64,000 bases of DNA from the NCBI GenBank assembly GCA_002327685.1, contig DCXN01000003.1, positions 6,981 to 70,980 of the forward strand, written 5' to 3'. The position numbers were made by a program, and so were the translations under genes. The first letter of the stretch is position 1, and each line of letters opens with the position of its first letter. Below the pieces are notes generated by a model. The model saw only the letters and a list, made by a program, of their open reading frames with translations. It ran no database searches and was not told the origin of the DNA. The stretch comes from Patescibacteria group bacterium UBA2135. GTDB taxonomy: Bacteria; Patescibacteriota; Minisyncoccia; Phycocordibacterales; UBA2135. Positions 10,396 through 64,000 of the stretch are shown here, piece after piece.

Positions 10396-10575
10396 CGAAC
10401 GGGAAAGGTCTGACCTTGAGGAAAAAACTGTGTCGCCAGGTCTGGCCTTGAGGAGGAGCGGAGCGACGGGAGAAGACCAGACCTTGCGGTACAGTTTTTG
10501 GGAAAAGGTCGGACCTCGCGGAGTCCATTTGCCGAACTGAGGAGTTTCAGCCCGAGACTGATCCGCCTCAGGCGG
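10396..10575. repeat. Family-2 GC-rich repeat array
   Basis: Units such as GGTCTGACCTTGAGG / CCAGGTCTGGCCTTGAGGAGGAGCGGAGCGACGGGAGAAG / ACCAGACCTTGCGG / GGTCGGACCTCGCGG. The core resembles the family-1 arm (CCGCAAGGYCCGGCCTT). Confidence 0.75.
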
Positions 10576-26879: not shown

Positions 26880-27034
26880 CCCCCCTCACTCGAAAAATTA
26901 TTGACGACGTAGAGCGAGGTAAATGGACGGGAAAGGTCTGACCTTGAGGAGGAGCGAAGCGACGGGAGAAGGTCGGACCTTGCGGAGTCCATTTGCCGAG
27001 CCGAGGAGTTAGTAACTTTTCGAGTGAGGGGGTG
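26880..27034. mobile_element. Non-coding MITE-like element with the same inverted repeats as the GIY-YIG element, carrying a family-2 repeat core
   Basis: Inverted repeats CCCCCTCACTCGAAAA (26881-26896) and TTTTCGAGTGAGGGGG (27017-27032) enclose GACGGGAAAGGTCTGACCTTGAGGAGGAGCGAAGCGACGGGAGAAGGTCGGACCTTGCGGAGTCCATTTGCCGAGCCGAGGAG. Confidence 0.55.
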
Positions 27035-27072: not shown

Positions 27073-29355
27073 ATGACAAGAAAATACAAAAAAAGACGCG
27101 GGAAATCTTCTTTCCTGCCCGCATTAAAAGAAGAGACGCGGCGCTTCATATTCTCAATCCTCTCGTTTGTTATCGCGATCTTTTTTCTGCTTGCATACGC
27201 TAATCAAGCTGGAATTGTAGGAGAATCAATACGAAACATATTCAACAAATTCTTCGGTGTCGGATATTTCCTCTTTCCCGCCTTTCTCGTAGGAGCTGGT
27301 ATAGTATTTCTTTCAATAAAACGCACACATATTGCCGCGGCAACTTTTTTAGGCGGTCTTTTATTTCTCACATCCGGCCTTGCGCTAATCAGCACATTCA
27401 ATAGTGAGGCTGGAGGCATTGTGGGAGCGATACTCTCTTCTCCTTTTGTCGCACTCTTTGATACATTTGCCACAAAAGTGATCCTTATCGCTTTACTATT
27501 CGTCTCGTTACTAATCTTATTTGACGCAACCCCTACAAAGATTATTTCCTCTCTCTCCGAGCTGGCAAACTGGTTAAAAAATTTGGTGAGCAGAAAACAG
27601 GAATCACTAGATTCTGATGAATACGAGGAAGATGAAGACGGTGAAGAGGGTGAATATGATGATGAGGAGTATGATGAAGAAGACGAGATAGAGGCACAAG
27701 ACGAATCGGAAGGAGAGACTACGCACAAAGAAGACGCCGAGAAACGTACTGCGCCTTTTGCGCAAACACTATCGCAAACCAAAGAAAACATTCTTTCATT
27801 CGTACAGGCTACCTCAAAAGAGTACACTCCTCCCCCACTATCGCTTTTTGAAACAGACAAAGGCAAACCTGATGTTGGAGACATAAAAGCAAATGCGAAT
27901 ATTATCAAAAGAACGCTTCAACATTTTGGTATAAATGTTGAAATGGACGAGGTGTCTATCGGTCCATCAATTACACGTTACGCGTTAAAACCGGCACAAG
28001 GAGTAAAACTTTCCCGCATTATAGGACTTCAAAACGATCTATCGCTCGCGCTTGCGGCACACCCTCTTCGCATTGAAGCACCAATACCTGGAAGATCTTT
28101 AGTCGGTATTGAAATACCAAATAATAAAAAAACTATCGTTGGTCTTGGTTCACTTCTAAAATCGCCTGAAATAAAGAAAACATCTGCTCCACTTGCGTTT
28201 CCTATCGGACGCAGTATTACAGGAAATCCAATTGTCGGAAACTTAAACAAAATGCCGCACCTGCTAATCGCCGGAGCAACTGGTGCGGGAAAATCGGTTT
28301 CCCTGCACACGATTATTACATCGTTACTCCACCGTAATGCACCTACAAACCTTAGGATTATCATGGTAGACCCTAAGCGAGTAGAATTGACACTCTATAA
28401 CAATATCCCACATCTTCTGACACCAGTCATCACCGATCCTAAAAAGGCAATTTTAGCACTCAAGTGGGCCGGCAAAGAAATGGATCGCCGATATGATGTT
28501 TTAGAAGCAGAATCAGTACGCGATATCGCTTCATATCATAAAAATGTTGTTGAACCTGCTTATGCAGAACAAGCGCAGAACAAGCGCGGAACAAGCGCGG
28601 CGGAACAAGAACAAGAACAGGAAGTAAATCCACTACCAGAAACAATGCCGTATATTGTTGTCATCATTGATGAGCTAGCGGATATTATGAATCTATATCC
28701 ACGAGAACTTGAGTCAGCAATTGTACGCATTGCGCAGATGGCGCGCGCTGTAGGTATTCATCTCATTCTCTCAACACAACGACCACAGGTAAACATCATC
28801 ACCGGACTAATTAAGGCAAACATTCCAACACGCATCGCGCTTCAAGTCGCTTCACAAACCGACTCAAGAACAATTCTTGACATGGGTGGTGCCGAGAAAC
28901 TCTTAGGTTCCGGTGACCTACTCTATCTTTCAAGTGAGATGTCAAAACCGGTACGTCTGCAATCTGCCTATATCGGAGAATCAGAAATAAAGAAGATAAC
29001 TAAATTTCTCGCAAAGCAAAACAAAGACGGTAAATTTGATGTTGACGTACACATTAACTCTCCCAAGAAAGACGTATTATTTGAAGCAAACCTTGAAGAA
29101 AATCTGGAGGACAAAGAAGGCACCGAGGAAGATGAATTGTATGAAGATGCCCGGGAAATCGTCATTCAAAGCAAAAAAGCATCAACAACGTACCTTCAAC
29201 GAAAATTAAGAATTGGATACGCTCGCGCGGCGAGCATCATGGACATGCTTGAAGAGCGCGATGTTGTAGGGCCCGCGGAAGGATCCAAGCAAAGAGAGGT
29301 ATTAATATCCGCTGGTGAGGAGACAGATTATGATGATGAAAACGAAAGTATTTAG
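27073..29355 (+). CDS. ftsK: DNA translocase FtsK/SpoIIIE
   Basis: N-terminal transmembrane segments, an acidic linker (EYEEDEDGEEGEYDDEEYDEEDE), Walker A GATGAGKSV, and a C-terminal gamma winged-helix TTYLQRKLRIGYARAASIMDMLEERDVVGP. Confidence 0.9.
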   Translation: MTRKYKKRRGKSSFLPALKEETRRFIFSILSFVIAIFFLLAYANQAGIVGESIRNIFNKFFGVGYFLFPAFLVGAGIVFLSIKRTHIAAATFLGGLLFLTSGLALISTFNSEAGGIVGAILSSPFVALFDTFATKVILIALLFVSLLILFDATPTKIISSLSELANWLKNLVSRKQESLDSDEYEEDEDGEEGEYDDEEYDEEDEIEAQDESEGETTHKEDAEKRTAPFAQTLSQTKENILSFVQATSKEYTPPPLSLFETDKGKPDVGDIKANANIIKRTLQHFGINVEMDEVSIGPSITRYALKPAQGVKLSRIIGLQNDLSLALAAHPLRIEAPIPGRSLVGIEIPNNKKTIVGLGSLLKSPEIKKTSAPLAFPIGRSITGNPIVGNLNKMPHLLIAGATGAGKSVSLHTIITSLLHRNAPTNLRIIMVDPKRVELTLYNNIPHLLTPVITDPKKAILALKWAGKEMDRRYDVLEAESVRDIASYHKNVVEPAYAEQAQNKRGTSAAEQEQEQEVNPLPETMPYIVVIIDELADIMNLYPRELESAIVRIAQMARAVGIHLILSTQRPQVNIITGLIKANIPTRIALQVASQTDSRTILDMGGAEKLLGSGDLLYLSSEMSKPVRLQSAYIGESEIKKITKFLAKQNKDGKFDVDVHINSPKKDVLFEANLEENLEDKEGTEEDELYEDAREIVIQSKKASTTYLQRKLRIGYARAASIMDMLEERDVVGPAEGSKQREVLISAGEETDYDDENESI

Positions 29356-29432
29356 TATCTGGTATTTAGTATTTAGTATACGATTAAATTTTTTTATACT
29401 AGATACTAGATACTAAATACTTGATACCCATG
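29341..29432. repeat. AT-rich inverted-repeat region built from ATACTAAATAC / GTATTTAGTAT units
   Basis: GTATTTAGTAT x3 followed by ATACTAGATACTAGATACTAAATAC. The same unit family occurs at 33781-33875. Confidence 0.5.
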
Positions 29433-29925: not shown

Positions 29926-30930
29926 ATGACAAATAAAAAACAGACAAAACCCAAAAAGGAGACAAACACCGGTCTTGAAAACACCATTGAATCAATTAAA
30001 ACAAAGTTCGGCGAAGGCGCTATTATGAAACTTGGCGACAGGCCAAAGGTTAACATTGATGCAATTCCAACCGGTTCAATTGGACTTGACGCAGCACTTG
30101 GTATTGGAGGACTCCCGCGCGGACGCATTGTTGAAATCTACGGCCCAGAATCTTCCGGAAAAACCACGTTGGCACTCCACGTAGTCGCAGAAGCACAAAA
30201 AAAGGGCGGCGTATGTGCATTTGTTGACGCAGAACACGCCATGGATCCTGAATATTCAAAAAAGCTAGGAGTAGAAACAAAAGAATTACTCATTTCACAG
30301 CCGGATACCGGCGAACAAGCGCTTGAAATCACAGAAAGTCTCGTTCGCTCTGGAAAAATTGACGTAATTGTCGTTGACTCTGTCGCAGCGCTCACTCCTA
30401 GAGATGAGATTGAAGGCGAAATGGGAGCGCACCATGTAGGAAAACAAGCACGATTGATGTCACAAGCGCTTCGGAAATTAACTGCAATTGTCGCGAGAAG
30501 CAAGACCGTCGTTATTTTTATAAATCAAATTCGCATGCAAATAGGCGTGATGTTCGGAAATCCAGAAACTACTCCGGGAGGTAAGGCGCTTAAATTTTAC
30601 ACTTCAGTCCGTATTGATATCAGGAGAATCGCACAGATTAAAAAAGGAGATGATGTGATCGGCTCGCGAACACGAGCAAAAGTTGTTAAGAACAAAGTTG
30701 CCGCCCCATTCAGAAAAGCAGAGTTTGACCTAATCCACAATGAGGGAATCTCTCGCGAGGGAGAAATACTTGTCATCGGAGAAAATATAGGAATTATTTC
30801 AAAGTCCGGAGCATCATACAGTTTCGCAAAAGAAAAATTAGGCAGAGGATACGACGCAGCACGCATCACCCTCAAAGAAAACACCAAACTACGAAACGAA
30901 CTCCTAAAAGAAATTAAGGGACAATTGTAA
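29926..30930 (+). CDS. recA: Recombinase RecA
   Basis: [36 protein letters not shown]...[22 protein letters not shown]. Confidence 0.95.
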
Positions 30931-30942
30931 ACTAAATCATGT

Positions 30943-31070
30943 AGCCAGGTCTAGCCTTGAGGAAAAAACTGTACGGCCAGGTCTGACCTTGAGGAGGAGC
31001 GGAGCAACGGGAGAAGGTCGGACCTTGCGGTATAGTTTTCGGAAGAAGACCAGACCTTACGGACCTTGTC
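30943..31070. repeat. Family-2 GC-rich repeat array
   Basis: CCAGGTCTAGCCTTGAGGAAAAAACTGTACGGCCAGGTCTGACCTTGAGGAGGAGCGGAGCAACGGGAGAAGGTCGGACCTTGCGG...GACCAGACCTTACGGACCTTG. Confidence 0.75.
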
Positions 31071-31230: not shown

Positions 31231-33078
31231 CTAATCCCCTATTGAAAGATTAGGATATTTGGTACGCAGGTCATCTCTTTCCGACAAAATGAGACCACTA
31301 AGATGAACGTTGCCGTCTACACGTTTTGGTAATTTAAGACCTTCGGATGATGTTAAGCCACTAAGATGAAGATTGCCGCTTACATTTTCGGGCAACTTAA
31401 GACCTTCAGATGATATTAAGCCATCAAGATTAAGACCACCGTCCATATGCTCGGGAAAATTGAGGTCTTTAGCTGACGTTAATCTTTCGAGATTAAGGCC
31501 GTCGCCTATATATTCGGGAAGATTGAGGCCTTTGATTGAGGTTAATCTGTTGAGAACCAGATGCCCACCTACATATCCGGGTAGCTTAAGACCTTCGACT
31601 GATGTTAATCTGAAGAAGTCAAGGTTGCCACCTACACGATTAGGTAATTTGAGCCCTTCGAACGAGGTTAAGTTATTGAGATAAAGGTTGCCACCTATAT
31701 ATTCAGGTAATTCAAGACCTTTAGTTGACGTTACGTCTTTGAGGTCTAAATGACCAAGGTGAAAAAGTATGCCACCTTGTAGAGCTTCTTCTTTGGTTAT
31801 ACTTACCTTATCTTTTGGCACATCAAATGCGAAAGATAAATCTTCTTTAACGTCTCTTTGATTTTGTATCTCTTTAATACGCGAGTCTCGTTGATGACCG
31901 AATCCTTCAATCTTAGAATCAATTTCGTAAAGAAATTTTATGTCGTCTTTTGAAAGTTCTTCGCCAGCCCGCCCTGAGTCTTGTCGAAGGGTTTTTCTCT
32001 CAATCTCGGTAAGCCGCTTCATGTCAGAAGTCTTCTTTTTGTATTGCTCTCCGTCAGGGAATTCCTGGAGTTTTTCTTCCACCACAGGAGCAATGTTTGA
32101 ATCAAGGTTTTGCTGTTCAGCTATGCCACGGACTTCTGCGATTTTGCCTTGTTGCATACGAATAGCAGCTCTCGGAATTATTGGTTTCCCATCTTCGTCG
32201 TATGAATAATATACATAAAAGTCACCTCCTTTAAGTTGTGTTTCCGCGGTTGACTCTCCCGCGGTACACCATCCTGTACCATGTCCTTGGAGAGAATGTA
32301 CCAATGGCATATGGTCTGAATTTCTGTCATATTTTATCCATTTTCCTTCTGTTCCGATTAGTTGTTCTTTTGACGCAGGTGTAATGCTTTCTATCGCGAA
32401 AGCATAGAGTTTGGAGAAGTTTTCGCCCTGGAGGAGTTCGTTAAATTTTTTCTGCTTTTCTTCATCAAACAAATACACGTCTAAATCTTCTCCCTTTGCT
32501 TTCTCTTCTATAGAATCAAGGACATAAGCCAAAGCTTCTCTGTTTAAGTCTGGGAATGGTTTTACAGTACCTTTTGTTCGCTTGGTGAATGATTTTTTCT
32601 CTTTGTCGTATTCACCCATTCCAAGCATACTTCGAAATGCGTAGTACTTTAACCAATCGGGGTATGTGGCATCTTTTGATGACAGATAGTCAGTCCATAC
32701 ATCCATGGAGCTTTTTTGGTCTGTGATGATAACTTCTGTCGCCTGCTCGCGAAGTTCTCCGCTAATCTCTACATCGCCGTGTCCTTGTTCACGCGCTATT
32801 CTCTGTTGAGCATCAAAATAGCTTTCGGATATTTCATCTTCCTTTATGACAAACTTGTCATAAAGCACCTTTTTCAGAGCTCGCATGCCGCGTTCGCGTT
32901 TTTCGGGATCTTCACGTTCAATAATCTCCTTAAAGCGATTAAGGTAGTTTTGTATCTGCTCTGTTGGTTTTTGTGGCACACGCTCACCCGTGATGGTTTC
33001 CGCACGCCTTGTAGCAGATTTCACCTCCGGTTTATTATGTAAATCGTATTTTTTCTTTAGAAATTCAGGATTTTCCAT
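31231..33078 (-). CDS. Leucine-rich-repeat protein (unknown N-terminal domain plus ~8 C-terminal LRR-like 23-24-aa repeats)
   Basis: Repeats LKLPxxVGGNLxLxxLTSxEG at the C-terminus. 615 aa. Confidence 0.55.
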   Translation of the reverse strand: MENPEFLKKKYDLHNKPEVKSATRRAETITGERVPQKPTEQIQNYLNRFKEIIEREDPEKRERGMRALKKVLYDKFVIKEDEISESYFDAQQRIAREQGHGDVEISGELREQATEVIITDQKSSMDVWTDYLSSKDATYPDWLKYYAFRSMLGMGEYDKEKKSFTKRTKGTVKPFPDLNREALAYVLDSIEEKAKGEDLDVYLFDEEKQKKFNELLQGENFSKLYAFAIESITPASKEQLIGTEGKWIKYDRNSDHMPLVHSLQGHGTGWCTAGESTAETQLKGGDFYVYYSYDEDGKPIIPRAAIRMQQGKIAEVRGIAEQQNLDSNIAPVVEEKLQEFPDGEQYKKKTSDMKRLTEIERKTLRQDSGRAGEELSKDDIKFLYEIDSKIEGFGHQRDSRIKEIQNQRDVKEDLSFAFDVPKDKVSITKEEALQGGILFHLGHLDLKDVTSTKGLELPEYIGGNLYLNNLTSFEGLKLPNRVGGNLDFFRLTSVEGLKLPGYVGGHLVLNRLTSIKGLNLPEYIGDGLNLERLTSAKDLNFPEHMDGGLNLDGLISSEGLKLPENVSGNLHLSGLTSSEGLKLPKRVDGNVHLSGLILSERDDLRTKYPNLSIGD

Positions 33079-33780: not shown

Positions 33781-33875
33781 TCTCGTATCTAGTATCTCGT
33801 ATTTTGTATAAAAACTAAAAAAAATTAACCGTATATACCATACTAAATACTAAATACCAGATACTAAATACTTTC
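33781..33875. repeat. AT-rich ATACTAAATAC-type repeat region
   Basis: ATCTCGTATCTAGTATCTCGTA...ATACTAAATACTAAATACCAGATACTAAATAC. Confidence 0.5.
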
Positions 33876-33876
33876 G

Positions 33877-34434
33877 TTAATTGTTAATTTTACTATTTAC
33901 TTTTTTAAACTCTCGCTTTGCGCGATAAATGCGTGTTTTTACCGCAGATATGGAAATGCCTTCAAGTGCGGCAATTTCTTTCTGTGGCATGCCATCAAGA
34001 AAATGAAGTTTTAACGCCCTACCCAACTGTTTAGGCATTCTCGTCAAAACAGAAGCTACAAAATCATATGTTTCAACATCCTCTACTTTGTCGGGAAATG
34101 CTTCATATACTTCCTTTTCAACCCGTAATAACGCGCCATCACTTTTCTTTAACTTCTGATAGTGTGAAAAGGTTGTGTTCAATAGTATTTTATATCCCCA
34201 TGATTTGAATGAAGCGCCCTGCTGAATTTTAAACCGGCCCGCATTTACATAAATTTTTACAAATGTTTCTTGCACAATATCATCAACTTCTTCCCGAGGA
34301 CCCAATATCCCACGCACCTTATTAAGAAACGGTGTTTGATAACGTTCAATCAACACCTCAAATACTGCCGGTTTTTTTACCGACAGAAAAAGAATCTCCT
34401 CATCACTTTTATCATGAAGTTCTTCGTGTTTCAT
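33877..34434 (-). CDS. RNA polymerase sigma factor, ECF (sigma-70 family)
   Basis: Region 2 (...DIVQETFVKIY...) and region 4 HTH (LDGMPQKEIAALEGISISAVKTRIYRAKREF). Start placed at the internal Met at 34434. Confidence 0.75.
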   Translation of the reverse strand: MKHEELHDKSDEEILFLSVKKPAVFEVLIERYQTPFLNKVRGILGPREEVDDIVQETFVKIYVNAGRFKIQQGASFKSWGYKILLNTTFSHYQKLKKSDGALLRVEKEVYEAFPDKVEDVETYDFVASVLTRMPKQLGRALKLHFLDGMPQKEIAALEGISISAVKTRIYRAKREFKKVNSKINN

Positions 34435-34444
34435 ACCTTTAATA

Positions 34445-34534
34445 CCTACAACATACAACTAACAACCTACAACTTAAAACCGATTGTGTTGATTGCTAGT
34501 CACCAGTTGTTAGTTGTTAGTTGTATGTTGTTGG
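34445..34534. promoter_or_regulatory. Long hairpin (29-bp arms) between rpsR and the sigma factor gene
   Basis: CCTACAACATACAACTAACAACCTACAAC ... GTTGTTAGTTGTTAGTTGTATGTTGTTGG. Confidence 0.5.
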
Positions 34535-34723
34535 TTATTTTGAGACATACGGCAAAAAACCCATAAAACGAGCTCGTTTCACCGCTTCAGAAATTTTTCT
34601 CTGATTGCGAGCGCTCACTTTTGTATATTTCTTTGAGACAATGCGAGCATGCAAATTAATATACTTTTTCAGCGTCTCAGTGTCCTTATAGTCTATATAT
34701 TTTAAGTTTGTGGCGTTATTCAT
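34535..34723 (-). CDS. rpsR: 30S ribosomal protein S18
   Basis: ...YIDYKDTETLKKYI...ARNQRKISEAVKRARFMGFLPY. Start taken at the internal ATG, which has a GGAGCGAAGGAAC RBS. Confidence 0.8.
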   Translation of the reverse strand: MNNATNLKYIDYKDTETLKKYINLHARIVSKKYTKVSARNQRKISEAVKRARFMGFLPYVSK

Positions 34724-39261: not shown

Positions 39262-39300
39262 ATCTATGGGCTAATTCGTGCGAATAAGCCCATAGATACT
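39262..39300. other. Hairpin with core TTATTCGTGCGAATAA (copy 1)
   Basis: TATCTATGGGC-TAATTCGTGCGAATAA-GCCCATAGATA. The same loop core sits in a perfect 18-bp-stem hairpin at 62493-62532. Confidence 0.5.
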
Positions 39301-39800
39301 AGGATCACTCTTGCTCTGCATCGCTGATAAAAAAGCTCCGCTGAAGCGGAGCAAGCCTTGTTTAACGCAAAGAGTTAAACTCATCGGTGGAAAGTCGCGC
39401 CGCTTCAACGGGGGAAATCCTCTCAACAGGGACTTCTCACTCCTCAGCGGTTGCCCAAAGGGGCTCGCGAACAATCCACCGACGCCGAAAAATGGTTCAT
39501 TCAAATTCGATAACAACAGATATTATAATCGCCCTAATTAATTGAATGCTCCTTTGGCTACATCGCTGGAGCAGGACGGGAAACTGCATCAGTGCTCACC
39601 TGCAAATATCCATTGTCATTGTAACATAAAGCAATCAAATTTGTCAGGCAAAACTAACTAACTACTTACCATCCCAAACAAGCCTTGCAATATAAGGGTA
39701 TTTAGGAAGCAGACAAAATTTTCTTTTGTACTTTTTTGAAGTCACCCCTTCCACAAAAAAGGCCCCAAAGAATGCACACGCACTCTTTGGGGCTTAATTT
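39300..39800. ncRNA. Candidate structured non-coding RNA of unknown class
   Basis: About 500 nt with no protein-like ORF and locally elevated GC (~50%). Multiple short GC stems (GCTCCGC-TGAA-GCGGAGC; GTTTAAC-GCAAAGA-GTTAAAC). The only ORF (39271-39516, minus) has an implausible composition. Confidence 0.3.
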
Positions 39801-45594: not shown

Positions 45595-45744
45595 ACGCAG
45601 TTTTAATGCACACATCGGCGAGGCTCGCCTCTTAGGCGGCCCGCCTTTTGGCAAGTGAAACTATTTTTGATAATTTATCCATAAATTGCTTACAACTTTC
45701 AACTGTTTCTATGGCGAAAATTAAATCATCACGGTTTCGTTGTT

Positions 45745-45882
45745 CGTCATAGGTCGTAGGTCGTTCGTTGTAGGTCGTTCGTTGTAGGTTGTTTGTCGTA
45801 GGTCGTTCGTTGTAGGTCGTTCGTTGTAGGTTGTTTGTTGTAGGTTGTTTGTTGTAGGTTGTTTGTTGTAGGTTGTTTGTTA
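45745..45882. repeat. Tandem repeat, 14-bp period x ~10
   Basis: (C/T)GTTGTAGGT(C/T)GTT repeated. Lies between the 45880-47808 gene stop and the glyQS start. Confidence 0.8.
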
Positions 45883-47808
45883 CTCGTCTTTAGGCAACAC
45901 TACCTTCCCCTGACTAAAAATAAAGTTCGGGTCAGTGCTAAGCGAAGTATCAAGCGCCTTACTTGAAAGACGCGCGACTGTCTCTGTAAACTCATCAACT
46001 CCTGAAAACGTTGACTCACCAATTACCGTCGGAGTCTGGTTGAGATGCGACAAGCTTGGCATAAGTTTTACCTGAAATGCAACCTCTCGCGGCGGCAATG
46101 TCATACCCGACCCCGCCTCAAGCCGATCAATGTTCCATACCACTTCGCGAGACGATTCATTGTATGAAATATTTTCACTCATTGGCGTAAAAACTCCCAC
46201 CCATTTAACATAAGGAGGTAAAACTGCTTTGACCATTGAGCGAGAGACATGATTTGACGAATTAACAGCCGTAAAAACAACTGTGTATGTTGTTTCGCGC
46301 TCAACTTCCGGCGGTACAGGACCTGTGTTTATAAACGGTCCAACAAAATATACCATACGAGACGTAAATACAACATCAGAGGCAATTTTAATCGTACGCT
46401 CAATTGAATTTTCAACTCGCTCATCAACGCCTGACTCCGAAAGTCGCTTACCACTTGTAGTTACAACAATATCAACAGTTGGATTTTTAAATAGTGAACC
46501 GCTTGTGGTAAAAAGCGGCTGCAACGCAAACCGAAAACTTGTTCTTCCCTGCGCGCCAGACTCAATGTCCGCAAGATCCGGCAGTGAATTCTTATCCCAC
46601 AAAATCGTGTTATCAGCTGAATCAAAGAATCCATTACGCGGCTTCACTGAAAGTTCATTAATAACATCACCTGAAAGCTTTGCTTCAATGCGCGCGTCAA
46701 CAATTTTGGTCGGCAAGTTATTTGTCCATACGACCTCAACGTCAACAAGCGAGCCGCTTCCCACAGCTGGTTCTTTTCTTGTTTCTCCATTGACAAACAA
46801 AAGCGTACTCAAGAAAGGGCGCGCAATTGAAATAGTAGATATTGATGTATTGTATGTAACCCCGAGTTCATTTTCTTTCTCTTTGGATTTAGCGCCGCTT
46901 GAAACCCGGAATACTTTCTCTTCCCCATCTTGCCCTTCAAGAATTCCGCGAACAACAATCACGCGCCGTGCCCGCGGCGCCAAATCACCAATAAGCCATT
47001 TGTTATCGCCAGATACGGCCTGCGGCTCAGCCCCAAGAAATGAAAAACCAAACGGATAGTCTATCTCGACAGCAAGATCACGAGTTATTATGTCGGTATT
47101 TGATATGACTGTAGCTTTAATTTCAAATTCCTGCCCTGCCACCGCTTCAGAAAGTGTCTCTACGGTAAGGCTGGTAGCAGAAGAGCTGATATGTATTTCA
47201 TGTTCTTTTTCTTTTACAAAAATGGCATTAGAATCTTCTACTCTATACTCAAGTGTAATATTAAATTTCTTTTCATCTCCTTCTTGTCCAAACAATACAA
47301 GCCGCAAAGGTTCTTCAATAACCTCCCCTGCTTCAATACGATCAAGCGATTTACGAAAGTTGGAAAGTTCTGTTTTAAGTTTGCCAACACTTCTTGTTCC
47401 TTGCGGATATTCAACCAAAAAATCAACAAATTCAAGAGGGACACTATTGTTATTTTCAATTACAATTTGGAGTTGCACTTCTTCACCCGCGGGCGCCGCA
47501 ACAGGGCCTGAAACAAGAATGTCCACATTTTTTGTGGAGATAACATTAGAATCACGCAGCAAAACAAATGAAGCAACAATCATCGCAAGAACAAAAAAGA
47601 GTATTGAGATAATGAAAAATTTTTTCCAGAATGGCATGATTGGTTTTTTTGCGTCCGCAGGATCCGCTTCTTCGGCTTCCCACCCGCTTTCACCCTCCCC
47701 GTCATGTGTATGAAGCTCAAAGCGTTCACTTGGAGGCAAATTCGCGCCACGCCTATACAAAGACTTTTTAAGCCGCTCTATCTTCCCCTCTTTTTTCACC
47801 TTAGACAT
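45880..47808 (-). CDS. Membrane-anchored large hypothetical protein with repeated beta-rich domains
   Basis: 642 aa. N-terminal transmembrane segment after a charged cytoplasmic head. Extracellular Ig-like repeats. Confidence 0.6.
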   Translation of the reverse strand: MSKVKKEGKIERLKKSLYRRGANLPPSERFELHTHDGEGESGWEAEEADPADAKKPIMPFWKKFFIISILFFVLAMIVASFVLLRDSNVISTKNVDILVSGPVAAPAGEEVQLQIVIENNNSVPLEFVDFLVEYPQGTRSVGKLKTELSNFRKSLDRIEAGEVIEEPLRLVLFGQEGDEKKFNITLEYRVEDSNAIFVKEKEHEIHISSSATSLTVETLSEAVAGQEFEIKATVISNTDIITRDLAVEIDYPFGFSFLGAEPQAVSGDNKWLIGDLAPRARRVIVVRGILEGQDGEEKVFRVSSGAKSKEKENELGVTYNTSISTISIARPFLSTLLFVNGETRKEPAVGSGSLVDVEVVWTNNLPTKIVDARIEAKLSGDVINELSVKPRNGFFDSADNTILWDKNSLPDLADIESGAQGRTSFRFALQPLFTTSGSLFKNPTVDIVVTTSGKRLSESGVDERVENSIERTIKIASDVVFTSRMVYFVGPFINTGPVPPEVERETTYTVVFTAVNSSNHVSRSMVKAVLPPYVKWVGVFTPMSENISYNESSREVVWNIDRLEAGSGMTLPPREVAFQVKLMPSLSHLNQTPTVIGESTFSGVDEFTETVARLSSKALDTSLSTDPNFIFSQGKVVLPKDE

Positions 47809-47862: not shown

Positions 47863-48053
47863 CCGCCAGGTCTGGCCTTGAGGAGGAGCGGAGCCGAGTC
47901 TGACTCGGCGCAGCGACGGGAAAAGGCCGGACCTTGCGGAACGGTTTTTTCTAATTTGCAGACCTTGAGAAAAAAACTGTGCAGCCAGGTCTGGCCTTGA
48001 GGAGGAGCGAAGCGACGGGAAAAGGCCGGACCTTGCGGAACAGTTTTCCGCAG
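47863..48053. repeat. Family-2 GC-rich repeat array (two large units)
   Basis: CCAGGTCTGGCCTTGAGGAGGAGCG(G/A)AGC...GACGGGAAAAGGCCGGACCTTGCGGAAC(G/A)GTTTT x2, one unit with an inserted CCGAGTCTGACTCGG hairpin. Confidence 0.8.
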
Positions 48054-48150
48054 TTTCCCCCCATTCCATCAGAACCTTGCAAGGTTTTGATAGAATGTTA
48101 ACAATTTAGGCAAAATTCCCCTCAATTTTATATGAATACAGCAATTTTTA

Positions 48151-48190: not shown

Positions 48191-48844
48191 TTAGTTCTCT
48201 AAATCAACAACAGTAATATCAGAAAAAACCTCTTGCAATACACGTAATCGTTCTGATGATTCTGTTTGTGACTTCTTTGAAAATTCTTTAATACTGTTTT
48301 CAATGTCATTTGTCATCTCTCCTGTTTTTTTAAATTTTTCTAATTCTCCATTTGGTAACATTGGCCAAAAATCTTTTGGTAAGCCACTCGTACCCTTTCT
48401 AACTCCTCCAATAAATCTCTTGTAGATACGGGATGTATATTTTTCTATTGGTGTGGGGTGAATGTATATAAATTCAAAATCAGACAACGTATCTGAAAAA
48501 ATACTTTTTAATGTATGTGGGTTTGCCATTGAACCTTCCACTACAACATTACCTCGCAATATAGCTTTTCGTAACTCTTGTTGAGCACCGGTAATAAAAG
48601 CTTCTCTCCATTCTGATGGTTCACCAAAACGATATGCCACAACATAAGCTTTAGGAACATCATCTACACCAAATTTTTCAACAACATTTTTTTGTACAAT
48701 TTGATCAAATGAAATCGATACATACCCAAGATCCTCTACTAGTTGATGAGCGAATGTTGTTTTTCCTGTTGAGGTTTTACCACTGATATATACAATCTGT
48801 GGTTTTGTGTTTTTAATCTTCTTATATACTCCCTCAAGATTCAT
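48191..48844 (-). CDS. P-loop NTPase / nucleoside(-tide) kinase-like protein
   Basis: Walker A IVYISGKTSTGKTTFAHQL. 217 aa. Confidence 0.55.
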   Translation of the reverse strand: MNLEGVYKKIKNTKPQIVYISGKTSTGKTTFAHQLVEDLGYVSISFDQIVQKNVVEKFGVDDVPKAYVVAYRFGEPSEWREAFITGAQQELRKAILRGNVVVEGSMANPHTLKSIFSDTLSDFEFIYIHPTPIEKYTSRIYKRFIGGVRKGTSGLPKDFWPMLPNGELEKFKKTGEMTNDIENSIKEFSKKSQTESSERLRVLQEVFSDITVVDLEN

Positions 48845-55745: not shown

Positions 55746-56399
55746 TCAACCAAGACATTCCCTAATTCTATTCAACGTCTCTCTACCATCTAAATCACGA
55801 ACGCTTGATGCCGGAATATTTACATGAGCTAATGTACGGTATCGTTCAAGTCGCCTTTTAAGCAAAATTGGATAACACCGCCTTAAGGCGTCCTCTTTGG
55901 ACTCACCTGCGTTCATTGAAAAATGACCGCACCAAATAACAGGTTTTGGATTACTAAAAAATTGCTCTATCATGCAGTCTAGAGAATCATTACCAACGTC
56001 AAGGTGAACTACAAGACAACTCTCGTACAAAACCTGAAGAGTCTCTGCATTAAGATGAACAACACTTCCTGTCGTGTCAAGCACAAGGTTTTTACCGCTT
56101 GTCTGAATTGATGCGCGTCTAGTAAGTTGGTCTTCAGATCTTAAATAACATTTTTCACGCTCTTGATAACCTGTATCAGAAGGATGCCCTAGCCATGAAG
56201 ATATATCTGTCATGGAATGAAAATTAAACATTTCCTGGATTTTTTCATCAACATGATGCCAGGAAAAGCCTAGTTTACAACAAAGCACCTTTGATCTATA
56301 ACTTTTCCCTGCATTTGACATCCCGACGAAAGAAAGTCTCAGGGTTTGCCCAGCAACGTGCGTATCAAACTCGCTCTGCTTCAACTGTCCAATGCTCAT
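55746..56399 (-). CDS. P-loop kinase (shikimate/gluconate-kinase-like fold)
   Basis: Walker A FVGMSNAGKSY, then LVLDTTG. Confidence 0.5.
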   Translation of the reverse strand: MSIGQLKQSEFDTHVAGQTLRLSFVGMSNAGKSYRSKVLCCKLGFSWHHVDEKIQEMFNFHSMTDISSWLGHPSDTGYQEREKCYLRSEDQLTRRASIQTSGKNLVLDTTGSVVHLNAETLQVLYESCLVVHLDVGNDSLDCMIEQFFSNPKPVIWCGHFSMNAGESKEDALRRCYPILLKRRLERYRTLAHVNIPASSVRDLDGRETLNRIRECLG

Positions 56400-59588: not shown

Positions 59589-59610
59589 TCATTGAAAAAT
59601 CCCGTCCCGC

Positions 59611-61098
59611 TTACAACTGGACGGGTTTTTTCTTTACAAGATATAAGAGCGCCAGTCCATAGAGAGCGTAAACAACCACCATCACCCACACAGGAAAAGA
59701 TGGCACAGAAACAGAAGCAAACGGTAAACGTGAAAATATATCTACAATGGTAAGCTCATAACTTAAAAGAGCGTAGGCAATATATGCAAATGGTAACGAC
59801 AAAATAATGTGTACAATGCCAAACACGCCGGTTAAAAATCCGAACAACATAGTAAGTGGAATAAATGCAAGAATAAGAATATTGACAACAACGGCGACAA
59901 TACTAAACTGCCCTGTCATATATAAAAGAAGTGGCAAAACAAAAATCTGTGTTGCAATAGTTGCCGTTGCAAACTCTCTTAATCCAAATTTTTTGGGCAC
60001 AAAAGAAAATATGCCCTGCATATGCGGCGCGAGATAAATCAACCCAACCGTAGCAAGAAAAGAAAGCTGAAACGAAGCGTCAAATATTAAAATTTTGGGA
60101 TTATGCACGAGCATTGCAATACCGGCAATTAAAAGTGCTGTTGTAATAGCGTAAAGTCTCCCTGTTGCTCTCGCGAGAAGTACTAACAACGCCATGATGC
60201 TCGCGCGGACAACAGTCGCCCCTGCTCCTGTCATCAAAGCAAAGCCTACAATTCCAAACACTGAAAGCCCTAGTGCAATACCGCGCGGAGCAAATGAGGC
60301 AAGACGTCCGATCCATTCCGCGACAATAGTTACGTTATACCCCGACAAAACGACTATATGGATAATGCCGACTGCGCGAAATGCTTCAAGAAGTTCTTCT
60401 CCAAGCGATTGCTTTGCTCCGAACACGACACCACCTACAAGTGATGCATGCGGTTCAGGAAGTGTAAGCGAAACGCTTTTAAGAAGCTTATTCTTGATTA
60501 AAAAAAGCTTCTGCGCAAATATATTTCCGCCGCCAACCCCAATTTTTTCAACTTCAGGATAAAACATCTGATAAAAAACATTGTCTTTTTTCAGATACCC
60601 AACATAATCAAACACTCGATCAGAGTCGTCTTGAGCAAAATTTTCCGGCTCATCTAAAATGCCCGACACTCGTACAACATCCCCATATTGAAATTCGGGA
60701 TATTTATCTACCACTAATAAAACATTTACCTTTTCCAGAATCTGTCTATCGGGAAGTATGGCATCAGCGCGTACAGTTAATTTTGTATGTCCCTCTCTAA
60801 CATCCGGCTCACGAACAACAGCGCCCTCCAGCACAATCTGTGTATCAATATGTTCTCCAAGTGGTGGTAAAATGTCTCCGATATCAAAACGAATGGTTCC
60901 AAGAGCAAGCGCGAAAATAAAAATTCCTGCCACAACAAAATAGTGTCGATTGCGTATACTCAAAACCGTAAGAATAAAAAACGTAACAGCAAGAAAGGTT
61001 AAAAAATAAACAAAAGTATCACCAAAATCAAAAAACGAACGAAATGCAATTCCGCCCGTAAAACCAACAAACGCAACAAGAAGCCATTTATTTATCAT
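59611..61098 (-). CDS. comEC: ComEC/Rec2 competence channel protein (DUF4131 plus Competence domains; no attached beta-lactamase domain)
   Basis: Polytopic membrane protein with ...AVGIIHIVVLSGYNVTIVA.... The beta-lactamase-like domain is encoded separately at 52605-53459. Confidence 0.8.
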   Translation of the reverse strand: MINKWLLVAFVGFTGGIAFRSFFDFGDTFVYFLTFLAVTFFILTVLSIRNRHYFVVAGIFIFALALGTIRFDIGDILPPLGEHIDTQIVLEGAVVREPDVREGHTKLTVRADAILPDRQILEKVNVLLVVDKYPEFQYGDVVRVSGILDEPENFAQDDSDRVFDYVGYLKKDNVFYQMFYPEVEKIGVGGGNIFAQKLFLIKNKLLKSVSLTLPEPHASLVGGVVFGAKQSLGEELLEAFRAVGIIHIVVLSGYNVTIVAEWIGRLASFAPRGIALGLSVFGIVGFALMTGAGATVVRASIMALLVLLARATGRLYAITTALLIAGIAMLVHNPKILIFDASFQLSFLATVGLIYLAPHMQGIFSFVPKKFGLREFATATIATQIFVLPLLLYMTGQFSIVAVVVNILILAFIPLTMLFGFLTGVFGIVHIILSLPFAYIAYALLSYELTIVDIFSRLPFASVSVPSFPVWVMVVVYALYGLALLYLVKKKPVQL

Positions 61099-61550
61099 AA
61101 AGACAATGACATATTTTCTTTAGAATTTTCCCCTCTGTCCATCGCGTCATTTGCCAGCTTATCCGCTTTTTTATTTTTCTCGCGCCGCACGTGCGTAAAT
61201 GTAATATTTGGAAAATCAGTAACGCGCATGTTGTTCACCGCAATAAATTGCGAAAACAATGTTTCTTTTTTGACTTGATATTCACCGCGCAATTGTTTGA
61301 CAACAAGCTCACTGTCAGTATGCACTTCAACGGAAGATTTTTGGAGTTTTTCTTTTCCTAAAAATTTTTTCAGATATTGAAGCCCTAAAATAATCGCCTG
61401 ATATTCCGCCCAGTTATTAGTACGCGTACCCAAAAATTGAGATATTTCTTTTAAAACGTTCCCCTGCTCGTCCGCGATAACAACACCCGCGCCAGCAGGC
61501 CCCGGATTCCCCCTCGCACCACCATCTGTATAGATAATAACTTTTGACAT
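61095..61550 (-). CDS. rnhA: Ribonuclease HI
   Basis: MSKVIIYTDGGARGNPGPAGAGVV...EYQAIILGL...VHTDSELVVKQ...NKKADKLAN. Confidence 0.85.
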   Translation of the reverse strand: MSKVIIYTDGGARGNPGPAGAGVVIADEQGNVLKEISQFLGTRTNNWAEYQAIILGLQYLKKFLGKEKLQKSSVEVHTDSELVVKQLRGEYQVKKETLFSQFIAVNNMRVTDFPNITFTHVRREKNKKADKLANDAMDRGENSKENMSLSL

Positions 61551-61677
61551 TTAACATTTAACATTTGACACTCAACCAGTCATTTTTTATTGGTTGATCG
61601 TCAAATATCAGATATTAGATCGTTCCAGAGGTTCAATCTCCAAACAAAACCTCCAAACAAATAATTACATTTTTAGT

Positions 61678-61707
61678 GTATCAGAAATTGGCTCCGCGCA
61701 AAGCGCG
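61678..61707. terminator. Strong GC-rich hairpin (13-bp perfect stem) at the edge of the GC-rich island
   Basis: ATTGGCTCCGCGC-AAA-GCGCGGAGCCAAT. Confidence 0.5.
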
Positions 61708-61758
61708 GAGCCAATAGTAAAGTAGCCAAGTACAAGATTCAAGACCACAATTCTCAGT

Positions 61759-62412
61759 TCAACTCGCTGGGACAATAAACGCAAACACGTTGCCAACATC
61801 CCGCCGGTCGCAAGGCTCAAACCAAGTCGCACTGAGCCAAAGACCATCATCGTGTGGACTCAAGCAGAACACGCTCGGACTGCCCTGGCGATCCTTGATG
61901 GGATTATGGGGAACAATAATATGCCGAAATCCCATTTCCTTCATCTGTCGATCCGAGACGGATTCCAGGATGCGCGGCGCAATACCCGCAAGCGGATTTC
62001 CATAGCCGTACTTTTCTGTTCCCCTCTTGCGCAGGTTGTCGTTCGTGCAGTCGGTATCGCACATGATTTCATCGGTGGGCATGAGCACGATTTGGTACTC
62101 CTGTCCCTCGACGAGCCGATGGTTCTTGTCGTAGCCGTCATGCCTCTTGCTCAAGAGGCACGATCGGGGCCAATCGTCCGTGCAGAATCCGGCGGCAGTA
62201 AGCCGCCTAAGCTCCTCCTTGCCCGTAAGGTCAAGCCCTGTGACCTTAAAGACAAAGTGACCGTGCTCGTTGCGCATGAACGAGAACGGGTTCTTGCGCT
62301 GTGTAAACAGCGCAAGTTCGTCGAGCGTAAGACCTCCATGCTGAACCTTGTGGCACAGGTCAGCAAGAAGACCAGCCAAGCGTTCGCCCGGCAAGGTTCC
62401 GATGTCACCCAT
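61759..62412 (-). CDS. Hypothetical protein encoded in a GC-rich (~57% GC) island
   Basis: Start at the internal ATG with an AGGAGAA RBS. Overlapping ORFs in all frames reflect the high GC. Confidence 0.5.
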   Translation of the reverse strand: MGDIGTLPGERLAGLLADLCHKVQHGGLTLDELALFTQRKNPFSFMRNEHGHFVFKVTGLDLTGKEELRRLTAAGFCTDDWPRSCLLSKRHDGYDKNHRLVEGQEYQIVLMPTDEIMCDTDCTNDNLRKRGTEKYGYGNPLAGIAPRILESVSDRQMKEMGFRHIIVPHNPIKDRQGSPSVFCLSPHDDGLWLSATWFEPCDRRDVGNVFAFIVPAS

Positions 62413-62492
62413 CAGAGTTCTCCTGTTTTGCCAGTGGGCTCTCCGACTACCGGAGTTTGCCATAGCAGAAAACCCTGAGCACAATTGCAAGT

Positions 62493-62532
62493 TCGTTGTT
62501 GTAGGCTTATTCGTGCGAATAAGCCTACAACA
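62493..62532. other. Hairpin with core TTATTCGTGCGAATAA (copy 2), perfect 18-bp stem
   Basis: GTTGTTGTAGGC-TTATTCGTGCGAATAA-GCCTACAACAAC. Confidence 0.55.
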
Positions 62533-62722
62533 ACACAGTCTAAGAGCTTTCTGCTACGGCAAACATATTTCAAAATCTGCGCACACTATACCCTACTTAA
62601 TACCACCTTGTCAAAAACTTTTTTTGCACCGCACGCTAAAATCCCAACAGCAACATAAAATCTATTCTAATATTCTCAAGAATTCAAGAATAGATTCAAG
62701 CTCTTGTTTTACATCCCACGTT

Positions 62723-64000
62723 CTACGTTCTCCTTATATCAACAAGTCGCAACCGCGGCTCACGGCTTCCGCGGAAACCATTACGCTCCATGTGGACCGT
62801 GAGAGTTACCCTCTCTCCTTCTTTGAAATCAGTAAGTTTTTTGTCGGCAAAAAAAGAAATTGCTGAAACGATTTTATCATCATTATTTTTAAAAAGAAAT
62901 GTCATGTGATTTTTTTCTTTTCCGAAAAATTGTATATCGTGAATTTTGATATTTTCAAATAAAAATATTGGTTTAGGATTACCCATACCAAATGGTGCAA
63001 GTTGTTCAACAGCAGAAAGCGTACGCTCATTAACTTCGTCAAGTAAAAGTGTAGTATCAACTGGTTTGTCTTTTTGTTCAGATGTATATTTAGGCACCAA
63101 TTCACGCGCGCGCAAAAGAGCTTCTTCAAACGTATGAATCTTTTCATTATGTATTGTAAAACCACCAGCGCGCTCATGCCCTCCGAAGTCACTAAAAACA
63201 TCTCCTTCAACACCCTGCATGAACTCAACAACATGAATACTGCCATCTGAACGACATGAGCCACGAATAATGGGAGACCCTAATCGTCCCCAAAGAAATA
63301 CCGGTCGTTCAAATTCTTTAGAGAGAGTATTCGCGGCAAGACCAAGCACTCCTGGCTGCCAATTAGGATTACCGGCCACAATAATTTCTTTTATTTCATC
63401 CCTGTTTATCTTTTTTCTTGCTTCTTTTACAATACCCGCAACCACACCTTTCCTTTTATCATTCAAACGATTCAATTGTTTAAGCGTTTCCAGCGCCGCC
63501 GTCTCGTCACGTTCAGAAAGAAAATTAAACCCTAAAACAGGGTCATCCATCCTGCTTGCGGCATTAATACGTGGGCCAATCACAAACCCAATGTCATCTT
63601 CAGTTAAAAATCTCTGATTAATATACAAATTTCTGAACAAGCGCATGAGACCGGGACGAGGACTCTTGCGAAGCACTTTAAGCCCAAAGTGAGCAAGTAC
63701 TCTATTCTCTCCAACAAGTGGAACCATGTCCGAGACAGTTGCAATGGCAACCATGTCCAAAAGCCACTTCTCCCAACCATCATGGATATCAAAAATTTCC
63801 TTTTCTTTTCCTTTCTGTATCACGCCTTGAAGAAATTTAAACGCGACACCACATCCGCATAATTCTTTAAATGGATACTCATCCCCTTTTTGATGAGGAT
63901 TTAATATCGCATATGCTTTTGGAAGATCTTCGGAAACTTCACCTGCTTTATCACGAGGCAAATGGTGGTCAGTTATAATTACATCAATATCCAAAGTACG
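62723..64000 (-). CDS. recJ: Single-stranded-DNA-specific exonuclease RecJ (N-terminally truncated by the window end)
   Basis: DHH motif (VIITDHH), DHHA1 (GGHERAGGF), and a C-terminal OB-fold region. RecJ is normally longer, so the gene probably continues past 64000. Confidence 0.75.
   Translation of the reverse strand, partial: RTLDIDVIITDHHLPRDKAGEVSEDLPKAYAILNPHQKGDEYPFKELCGCGVAFKFLQGVIQKGKEKEIFDIHDGWEKWLLDMVAIATVSDMVPLVGENRVLAHFGLKVLRKSPRPGLMRLFRNLYINQRFLTEDDIGFVIGPRINAASRMDDPVLGFNFLSERDETAALETLKQLNRLNDKRKGVVAGIVKEARKKINRDEIKEIIVAGNPNWQPGVLGLAANTLSKEFERPVFLWGRLGSPIIRGSCRSDGSIHVVEFMQGVEGDVFSDFGGHERAGGFTIHNEKIHTFEEALLRARELVPKYTSEQKDKPVDTTLLLDEVNERTLSAVEQLAPFGMGNPKPIFLFENIKIHDIQFFGKEKNHMTFLFKNNDDKIVSAISFFADKKLTDFKEGERVTLTVHMERNGFRGSREPRLRLVDIRRT

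Follow-up and report, generated by a model that had tools for sequence, protein, structure and literature searches.

The closest described systems to the locus reported here are the diversity-generating retroelements (DGRs) of cellular Patescibacteria, or candidate phyla radiation (CPR), which make up clade 2 of Roux et al. 2021 (PMC8144416) and the CPR set of Wu et al. 2018 (PMC5758913). In relatives of the gene described here, a module consisting of Avd, a template repeat and a reverse transcriptase (RT), located directly after the terminator of the target gene, rewrites the variable repeat (VR) of that gene by adenine-specific mutagenic retrohoming. Remote DGR targets, such as that of a Treponema DGR (Wu et al. 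2018), are target-type genes lying far from any RT, and no such targets were seen among the CPR DGRs of that survey (PMC5758913). In the DGR of phage BPP-1, the VR is followed after 4-34 bp by a target-site hairpin with a GC-rich stem of 7-10 bp and a 4-nt GRNA loop (Guo et al. 2011, PMC3240598). The current study concerns a GC-rich island between recJ and rnhA in a 64,000-nt stretch of the Patescibacteria group bacterium UBA2135 genome (contig DCXN01000003.1, positions 6,981 to 70,980; hereafter the window), which an earlier note had suggested to be a horizontally acquired cassette bounded by two hairpins. It is likely that this island is a lineage-specific insertion carrying a stand-alone DGR variable-protein gene that lacks its retroelement module.

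The ORF, its DGR target family and the missing retroelement parts

The open reading frame (ORF) of the island encodes 217 amino acids from its ATG, one fewer than the earlier note had counted, or 243 amino acids from an upstream TTG, and is preceded by an AGGAG motif. Neither the ORF nor its profile matched Pfam, PHROGs or PDB sequences, but the homology search suggested by the earlier note recovered 76 homologues from a large protein collection, approximately 60 of them full-length and 46-64% identical, in metagenome-assembled genomes (MAGs) of Candidatus Paceibacterota, Kaiserbacteria, Lloydbacteria and other Patescibacteria. Downstream of two of these homologues (P0009 and P0014), at a distance of approximately 450 nt, lie a divergent bAvd gene and an RVT_1 reverse transcriptase, and the last ~130 nt of both homologues are repeated approximately 470 nt downstream. 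Mismatches between the VR and the downstream copy fall at template adenines in 19 of 20 cases at locus L003 and in 13 of 13 at L004, and a downstream repeat with mismatches almost confined to adenines in this manner identifies the two copies as the template repeat and VR of a DGR. An adenine-tolerant scan of all homologous loci, which had been gathered by genome and metagenome scans, found a template repeat in approximately 10 loci; Avd and/or RT were detected at these loci wherever the contig was long enough, with the exception of L009 (template repeat only). Where enough flanking sequence is available, most homologous loci have the VR in the final ~130 nt of the gene. By this homology to proteins with paired variable and template repeats, the window ORF belongs to a family of Patescibacteria DGR variable proteins. 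Two other 217-amino-acid ORFs in the window (48191-48844 and 55746-56399) were considered as paralogues and excluded, sharing 19-25% identity.

Family members combine a conserved N-terminal helical domain of ~45 amino acids with a C-terminal domain that is predicted to be C-type-lectin-like, the last ~40 residues of which form the variable region. The predicted C-type-lectin-like fold of the window protein is only moderately supported. Foldseek searches against the PDB and BFVD returned nothing significant. The window protein thus resembles Patescibacteria DGR targets in its full-length identity, in the position of the VR at the extreme C-terminus and, tentatively, in its predicted fold, and differs from them in the substitution of otherwise invariant positions of the VR scaffold, in the absence of a Pfam model for its family and in the distinctive N-terminal domain. 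No sequence similarity was detected to the C-type-lectin or formylglycine-generating enzyme (FGE)-sulfatase-fold targets TvpA (Treponema denticola variable protein 1, PDB 2y3c), Mtd, TaqVP and AvpA, compared to which the window protein is smaller and has an unrelated N-terminal domain.

In contrast to complete Patescibacteria DGRs, the window copy is not accompanied by a template repeat, Avd or RT within ~71 kb. Neither a repeat finder nor the adenine-tolerant scan identified a template-repeat-like copy of the ORF 3' end on either strand of the 64 kb, and tblastn with the family RT and Avd found neither in the window. A 106-kb contig covering the same locus (L044) likewise contained no template repeat in the 10 kb past the window end and no RVT_1 or bAvd among its called genes, so that the search extended ~61 kb downstream and 10 kb upstream of the ORF, or ~71 kb in all. 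The RVT_3 Pfam match beside the ORF belongs to the RNase H gene and was rejected as an RT. The window also lacks the TACAAT box and the conserved element (CGGTAGTAGG / CGGTAGTAGGYGMATAYGC) that follow the terminator in complete DGRs. Elsewhere, a TACAAT box followed by CGGTAGTAGGYGMATAYGC was observed between the target terminator and the template repeat in L003 (6735-6760), L004 (~6745), L009, L016 and L018-L026, where the promoter and start of the DGR template RNA probably lie. Reduced loci were found in other genomes as well, including a VR and template repeat without RT (L009) and the gene alone (L007, L008 and L017).

The VR-equivalent segment of the window gene can be aligned by reading, codon for codon, with the variable and template repeats of L003 and L004, showing NNC or NNT where the templates have AAC or AAT. 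In the window protein, 13 of the 98 columns conserved in the family carry a different residue, and four of the changes (R149L, L182F, R186P and W204R) affect positions that are invariant in 49 of 49 relatives. R149L lies upstream of the VR; the other three affect the VR scaffold, where the templates of relatives have bases other than adenine at the corresponding positions. The GC content of the window VR (0.57) and of its last 36 nt (0.50), equivalent to the initiation of mutagenic homing (IMH) site, are both the lowest in the family. In a five-member cluster at 90% identity, two amino-acid variants were found outside the VR and none inside it, a comparison of low power (see below). Based on these sequence comparisons, the window copy is most likely no longer diversified and persists as a stand-alone gene, having been gained without the DGR module or having lost the module later. 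Its product would most likely be a stand-alone binding protein whose specificity is fixed and which is expressed through the promoter and leader of the gene itself.

Several points weigh against this interpretation. The MAG is fragmentary, and a DGR could be located on another contig. The ORF, promoter, ribosome-binding site (RBS) and leader are all intact, and the changes described here as erosion may instead reflect adaptation. The seven contigs carrying the island all match the window at 100% identity over 2-12 kb, and minor variants are lost from view in consensus assemblies; the absence of variation in the VR is therefore weak evidence. Finally, the choice between gain at this site and loss elsewhere (see below) is made by parsimony over three related lineages.

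At the 3' end of the gene, a conserved spacer lies between the stop codon and a GC-rich hairpin, and the stem GGCTCCGCG of this hairpin is identical or near-identical in nine loci (including L003, L004, L016, L017 and L020-L023) and covaries in L007, L009, L018 and L025. The earlier note recognized this perfect 13-bp stem but placed it approximately 9 nt away, at 61678-61707. The window hairpin resembles the hairpin or cruciform of DGR target sites in being a GC-rich inverted repeat 3' of the VR whose pairing is kept as the stem varies. In contrast to the shorter stem, GRNA loop and closer spacing of the BPP-1 type, it has a 13-bp stem, a TTT loop and a distance of 43 nt from the stop codon, and in homologues the hairpin is followed by a run of T4-T9, as in an ordinary intrinsic terminator. 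The corresponding tail in the window (TTCTGATA) is weak, and the terminator scan made no call there. The hairpin is best read as the terminator of the target gene, at which the transcript would end, although it might also play some part in homing.

The main alternative to a stand-alone copy is a DGR remaining active elsewhere in the genome, for which the ORF would be a non-adjacent target with its VR rewritten in trans and the 3' hairpin acting as the target-recognition structure. We consider this unlikely, while noting that several observations are compatible with it. Remote targets have been documented for other DGRs (PMC5758913), but for a gene to count as a remote target, its genome must contain a matching template repeat, and none was found within the region searched; moreover, in the survey cited, CPR DGRs mostly had a single target, with remote (>100 kb) targets found in another lineage only (PMC5758913). 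The incompleteness of the MAG and the absence of a local RT at other loci, such as L009, leave room for an RT elsewhere; a protein search for an RT belonging to this MAG returned at least 7,992 RTs at E <= 1e-60, and the CL630 locus tag was absent among the 120 matches listed. The gene is intact, with a conserved promoter, leader, spacer and hairpin, whereas its VR scaffold is altered at non-adenine positions, its IMH-equivalent GC is the lowest of the family and the two protein variants noted above lie outside the VR. Although GC-rich inverted repeats 3' of the VR aid homing in phage BPP-1 (PMC3240598), the loop and spacing of the window hairpin depart from the phage pattern. Table 1 lists the coordinates of the features of the stand-alone gene and of related elements in the window.

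Table 1. Positions of the principal features and repeats in the 64,000-nt window
Feature	Position	Strand	Remarks
Probable lineage-specific insertion, ~1.08 kb	61570..62650	-	approximate boundaries; empty site in sister genomes
Sigma-70-like promoter, TTGACA-18-TATAGT	62585..62614	-	11/12 consensus positions
Structured 5' leader RNA	62410..62568	-	P1 stem 62455-62479 / 62540-62564, then small second hairpin and Shine-Dalgarno (SD) AGGAG (62424-62420)
Perfect 19-bp palindrome, core GGCTTATTCG-NN-CGAATAAGCC	62495..62534	.	apex of leader stem P1
217-amino-acid ORF, homologue of Patescibacteria DGR variable (target) proteins	61759..62412	-	by homology
VR-equivalent segment, last ~130 nt of ORF	61762..61891	-	apparently frozen and eroded
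CTTG/CTTTG-rich conserved 3' spacer, stop codon to hairpin	61716..61758	-	45-65-nt pattern in ~18 homologous loci
GC-rich 13-bp hairpin, ATTGGCTCCGCGC-TTT-GCGCGGAGCCAAT	61687..61715	-	perfect stem, 3-nt loop; arms 61687-61699 / 61703-61715
Second same-core palindrome (GGCTTATTCGCACGAATTAGCC when read on the minus strand)	39262..39297	.	between terminator and tatD start codon
Copies of ~88-nt intergenic repeat	236-323, 2002, 3361, 6331, 7275, 7958, 14133, 16953, 20904		

Probable insertion between recJ and rnhA and the composition of the island

The genes flanking the island are those named in the earlier note, with an RNase H gene (rnhA) at 61095-61550 and recJ at 62723-63994. Related genomes were located through close homologues of this RNase H. 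In loci L049-L052, whose RnhA is 89% identical, the recJ stop codon is separated from the rnhA start codon by 112 nt, and in more distant relatives the spacer is 77 nt (L055, RnhA 74% identical) or 6 nt (L053, 72%). Because recJ directly precedes rnhA in three related genomes, one of them close, the island appears to be an insertion. By blastn, homology between the window and L049 covers the 3' end of recJ together with an AT-rich hairpin (62696-62659), breaks off at 62651 (..TTTTATGTTG) and restarts at the rnhA ATG at 61550, which delimits a lineage-specific segment of ~1.08 kb. These alignments support the gain of the island by this lineage. An ATGTTR motif is present at both junctions and could possibly represent a target duplication or microhomology. 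The junctions at ~62650 and ~61570 have no inverted repeats matching one another, the insert encodes no transposase, integrase or other recombinase, and the window contains no tRNA or tmRNA usable as an integration site.

The composition of the island differs from that of its surroundings. In 300-nt windows, GC content is 0.36-0.42 in the flanks and increases to 0.53-0.56 across 61750-62500, against a host background of 40-42%. The jump reported by the earlier note is therefore present, but its figure of ~57% was an overestimate, as the interval 61650-62540 has 52.5% GC and the ORF ~55.4%. Only 0.3% of 891-nt windows across the 64 kb reach the GC content of the interval, with one comparable peak at ~9051. 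Among 40 non-overlapping window ORFs of at least 150 amino acids, the island ORF ranks first both for GC (0.553, compared to a mean of 0.418 and a standard deviation of 0.044) and for GC at third codon positions (GC3; ~0.65, or 0.643 in the ranking, compared to a mean of 0.359 and a standard deviation of 0.073), and island codon usage is foreign to the host genome. The earlier note had allowed that GC content and codon usage, once computed, might prove to be within the normal range; since the ORF tops both rankings, they do not. As a separate observation, the second-highest local GC content (peak 0.54 near 9051-9940) is associated with a 747-amino-acid ORF (8080-10323, minus strand) with a marginal Big_13 Ig-like match.

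High GC content is also characteristic of the family as a whole. Family members have a GC content of 0.52-0.63 and a GC3 of 0.61-0.82 regardless of the GC content of their flanks (0.40-0.62), and GC usually climbs toward the VR in full-length homologues. In complete DGR loci (L003, L004, L019, L020 and L025, which are full-length homologues, and L013 and L014, which are relatives by the N-terminal domain), the GC content of the target gene (0.55-0.63) exceeds that of the avd (0.37-0.53) and RT (0.39-0.52) of the same locus in seven out of seven cases. Targets at these seven loci have a GC3 of 0.66-0.82 and are GC-richer than their flanks as well. Since it is an intrinsic trait of the family, high GC cannot be counted as independent support for a recent transfer, and the contrast in the window would simply be a family hallmark made visible by the lower GC content of the host. 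The acquisition proposed in the earlier note is consequently retained on account of the empty site in relatives, while GC content is set aside as independent support for it and the hairpins as its boundaries.

It is also necessary to consider that the gene was already present here in the ancestor and that the sister lineages lost it through separate deletions, in which case the GC contrast would reflect only the composition of the family and would offer no proof of transfer. Gene loss is frequent in Patescibacteria genomes. However, the adjacency of recJ and rnhA (6-112 nt) at three levels of RnhA identity (89%, 74% and 72%) would require repeated clean deletions, and the closest homologue of the ORF is just 64% identical and found in unrelated contexts. 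An ancestral gene is thus very unlikely compared to a lineage-specific insertion.

Promoter, leader RNA and palindromes

The insert can be read as one transcription unit, in which a sigma-70-like promoter, a leader, the 217-amino-acid ORF, the 3' spacer and the terminator-like hairpin would follow one another. Matching TTGACA/TATAMT boxes are found upstream of the leader at homologous loci. The P1 stem of the leader is a 25-nt inverted repeat in the window and encloses the 19-bp palindrome. In an alignment of 19 leader sequences, P1 comprises 22 pairs, 12 of which show compensatory changes; 95.2% of P1 cells are paired, compared to ~45% after displacement of the partners by 1-3 columns, and the observed values were reached in none of 500 shuffles. 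That this is an RNA structure of the mRNA is indicated by conserved G-U pairs and by covariance-model scores, which are higher for the sense strand. The leader consists of a covarying 22-bp stem with near-invariant GCAGAAAG/UUUUCUGC, then a second hairpin and a stretch that may sequester the SD sequence. Covariance model R1 scored 54.5 bits at the leader, its sole match in the window, and the predicted fold energy is -82 kcal/mol (z = -6.5). Apart from tRNAs, neither the window nor nine homologous loci gave an Rfam match at gathering level, and permissive thresholds yielded only sub-threshold, hairpin-like miRNA noise on the leader.

The leader is also present 5' of genes that share just the N-terminal ~45-amino-acid domain with the window ORF, and it seems tied to this domain and not to the variable domain. 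It may have a role in translational control or mRNA stability. Two further observations concern the distribution of the leader. The N-terminal domain (IGTLPGERLAGL...LDELALF.QRKNPF) and the leader are common to proteins with different C-terminal domains (P0062-P0076; L011-L014 and L035-L043), with L013 and L014 adjoining DGR RT and Avd genes, which suggests that leader plus N-terminal domain form a modular platform for several variable domains. In addition, L016 carries three tandem leader copies (790-882, 1684-1800 and 2852-2969) on a contig of 3.5 kb, which points to an array of target-gene paralogues that are all preceded by separate leaders.

Most homologues have a short hairpin (GGCTTA-loop-TAGGCC) at the apex of P1, but in the window the apex is approximately 60 nt larger and includes the palindrome. 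The latter corresponds to the 18-bp perfect-stem hairpin that the earlier note placed at 62493-62532; it is actually 19 bp long, with arms at 62495-62513 and 62516-62534. The note had also reported that its core recurs in a second hairpin, and TTATTCGTGCGAATAA was indeed found again with one mismatch at 39272-39287, compared to a chance expectation of 0.09 for matches with up to two mismatches. This second hairpin is not another leader copy, as covariance model R1 has no match there. Copies were also found in two other genomes, so that GCTTATTCG-NN-CGAATAAGC palindromes with differing, compensated outer stems are now known from the two window sites, from L049 (7982-8009) and from L003 (5248-5279). 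The 22-nt core of the 39262 palindrome, including its single asymmetry, is shared with sister genome L049 (7985-8006), where the palindrome lies between comEC and sod and is absent from the equivalent window site (59589-59610); the L003 copy is directly 3' of rplS. A core match in L040 was attributed to chance, being inside a coding region and without an extended stem, and the exact core had no matches in viral contigs.

The palindromes resemble repetitive extragenic palindromic (REP) sequences and bacterial interspersed mosaic elements (BIMEs) in their shared core, compensated variable outer stems, sites in intergenic or untranslated regions and presence or absence between sister genomes. They differ in being limited to four independent copies and in having a core not known from described REP families; no gene resembling the REP-associated tyrosine transposases (RAYTs) turned up in the window, though no search aimed at RAYT was made. 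With four independent copies at hand, we interpret the palindrome as a small REP-like element and not as a cassette boundary, and in the window it would enlarge the apical loop of the leader. Near the second palindrome, a relatively GC-rich, non-coding segment of ~280 nt (39335-39620, minus strand) was observed between metG and tatD. Preceded by promoter-like TTGATT..TACAAT and ending in the canonical terminator GCTCCGC-TTCA-GCGGAGC-T6, it is a candidate small RNA with no Rfam match; nothing relevant was found in Rfam for the 39.3-39.8 kb region.

These features bear on the possibility that the island is a self-mobile or site-specifically mobilized cassette, similar to IS200/IS605 elements, miniature inverted-repeat transposable elements (MITEs) or integron cassettes, with the hairpins as recognition ends. 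The presence of a strong hairpin near either end of the GC-rich stretch, the occurrence of same-core palindromes elsewhere in this genome and others, and the short repeat at both junctions would fit such a cassette. However, the two hairpins are unrelated in sequence and internal to the inserted transcription unit, where they have family-conserved roles as leader apex and terminator, and the junctions lie ~115 nt beyond each of them, outside both; the same leader and terminator also occur inside ordinary DGR cassettes at homologous loci. The hairpins are consequently excluded as transposon ends. Of the terminal repeats, target duplication and cognate enzyme typical of a transposon, MITE or integron cassette, only the ambiguous ATGTTR repeat was found, and the insert encodes no transposase or integrase, making a mobile cassette most improbable. 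The suggestion that the ORF is spurious and the GC-rich stretch a structured non-coding RNA, in line with the GC-rich RNA genes of many AT-rich genomes and the lack of a Pfam match, is effectively refuted by protein-level conservation (76 homologues of conserved length, with 48 invariant residues among 12 diverse members), along with a confident fold prediction, a coding-like GC3 of 0.65 far above a GC2 of 0.41, an RBS and start codon, and the absence of an Rfam match.

Other repeats in the window and significance

The window contains several other repeats. An intergenic, GC-rich repeat of ~88 nt (CCGCAAGGCCCGGCCTTACATGGGGATAAC...CCCCGCAAGGCCGGGCCTTGCG) with two hairpins occurs in at least nine copies in the first 21 kb (Table 1). 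A second GC-rich intergenic family (AGGTCTGGCCTTGAGGAGGAGCGGAGCGACGGGAGAAGACCAGACCTTGCGG) with internal inverted symmetry is found at 10406-10522, 26934-26985, 30947-31063 and 47868-48071. Perfect inverted repeats of 39 nt (29341-29379 and 33840-33878), AT-rich and composed of TACTAAATA-like units, surround a 4.46-kb segment that holds recA (29926-30930) and encodes a 615-amino-acid protein without a Pfam match, which has 63-nt internal tandem repeats (31306-31733). Directly upstream of a 642-amino-acid ORF (45880-47808) is a tandem array (45722-45903) of ~13 GTTCGTTGTAGGTC-like units with a period of 14 nt, and an inverted copy related to this array is located at 34444-34535.

The more novel findings of this study are by-products of the analysis, namely the covarying leader RNA, the GC excess of the target genes and the palindrome family, among which the leader RNA is the most interesting. 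The leader and the excess of target GC over the RT and avd genes of the same element were not found in Rfam 15 or in the literature searched, and they do not overturn the current understanding of DGRs. The leader may constitute a novel type of cis-regulatory RNA that serves specifically the DGR target genes of Patescibacteria; separately, the GC-rich, 3'-graded composition of the targets may be a mutational or gene-conversion footprint of repeated retrohoming. Taken jointly, we regard these two proposals as tentative and rather doubtful. If the footprint explanation is true, the stand-alone copy would provide a natural 'switched-off' control that is decaying slowly toward host composition.

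With respect to the gene itself, what appeared to be an anonymous hypothetical protein in a GC-rich island can now be recognized as a variable-protein gene of the DGR type, located in a marine Patescibacteria genome and lacking diversifying machinery in its vicinity. The existence of such stand-alone copies suggests that a DGR target gene can move as a single transcription unit and persist in this form, which is relevant both to the counting of DGR targets in metagenomes and to the domestication of hypervariable binding proteins.

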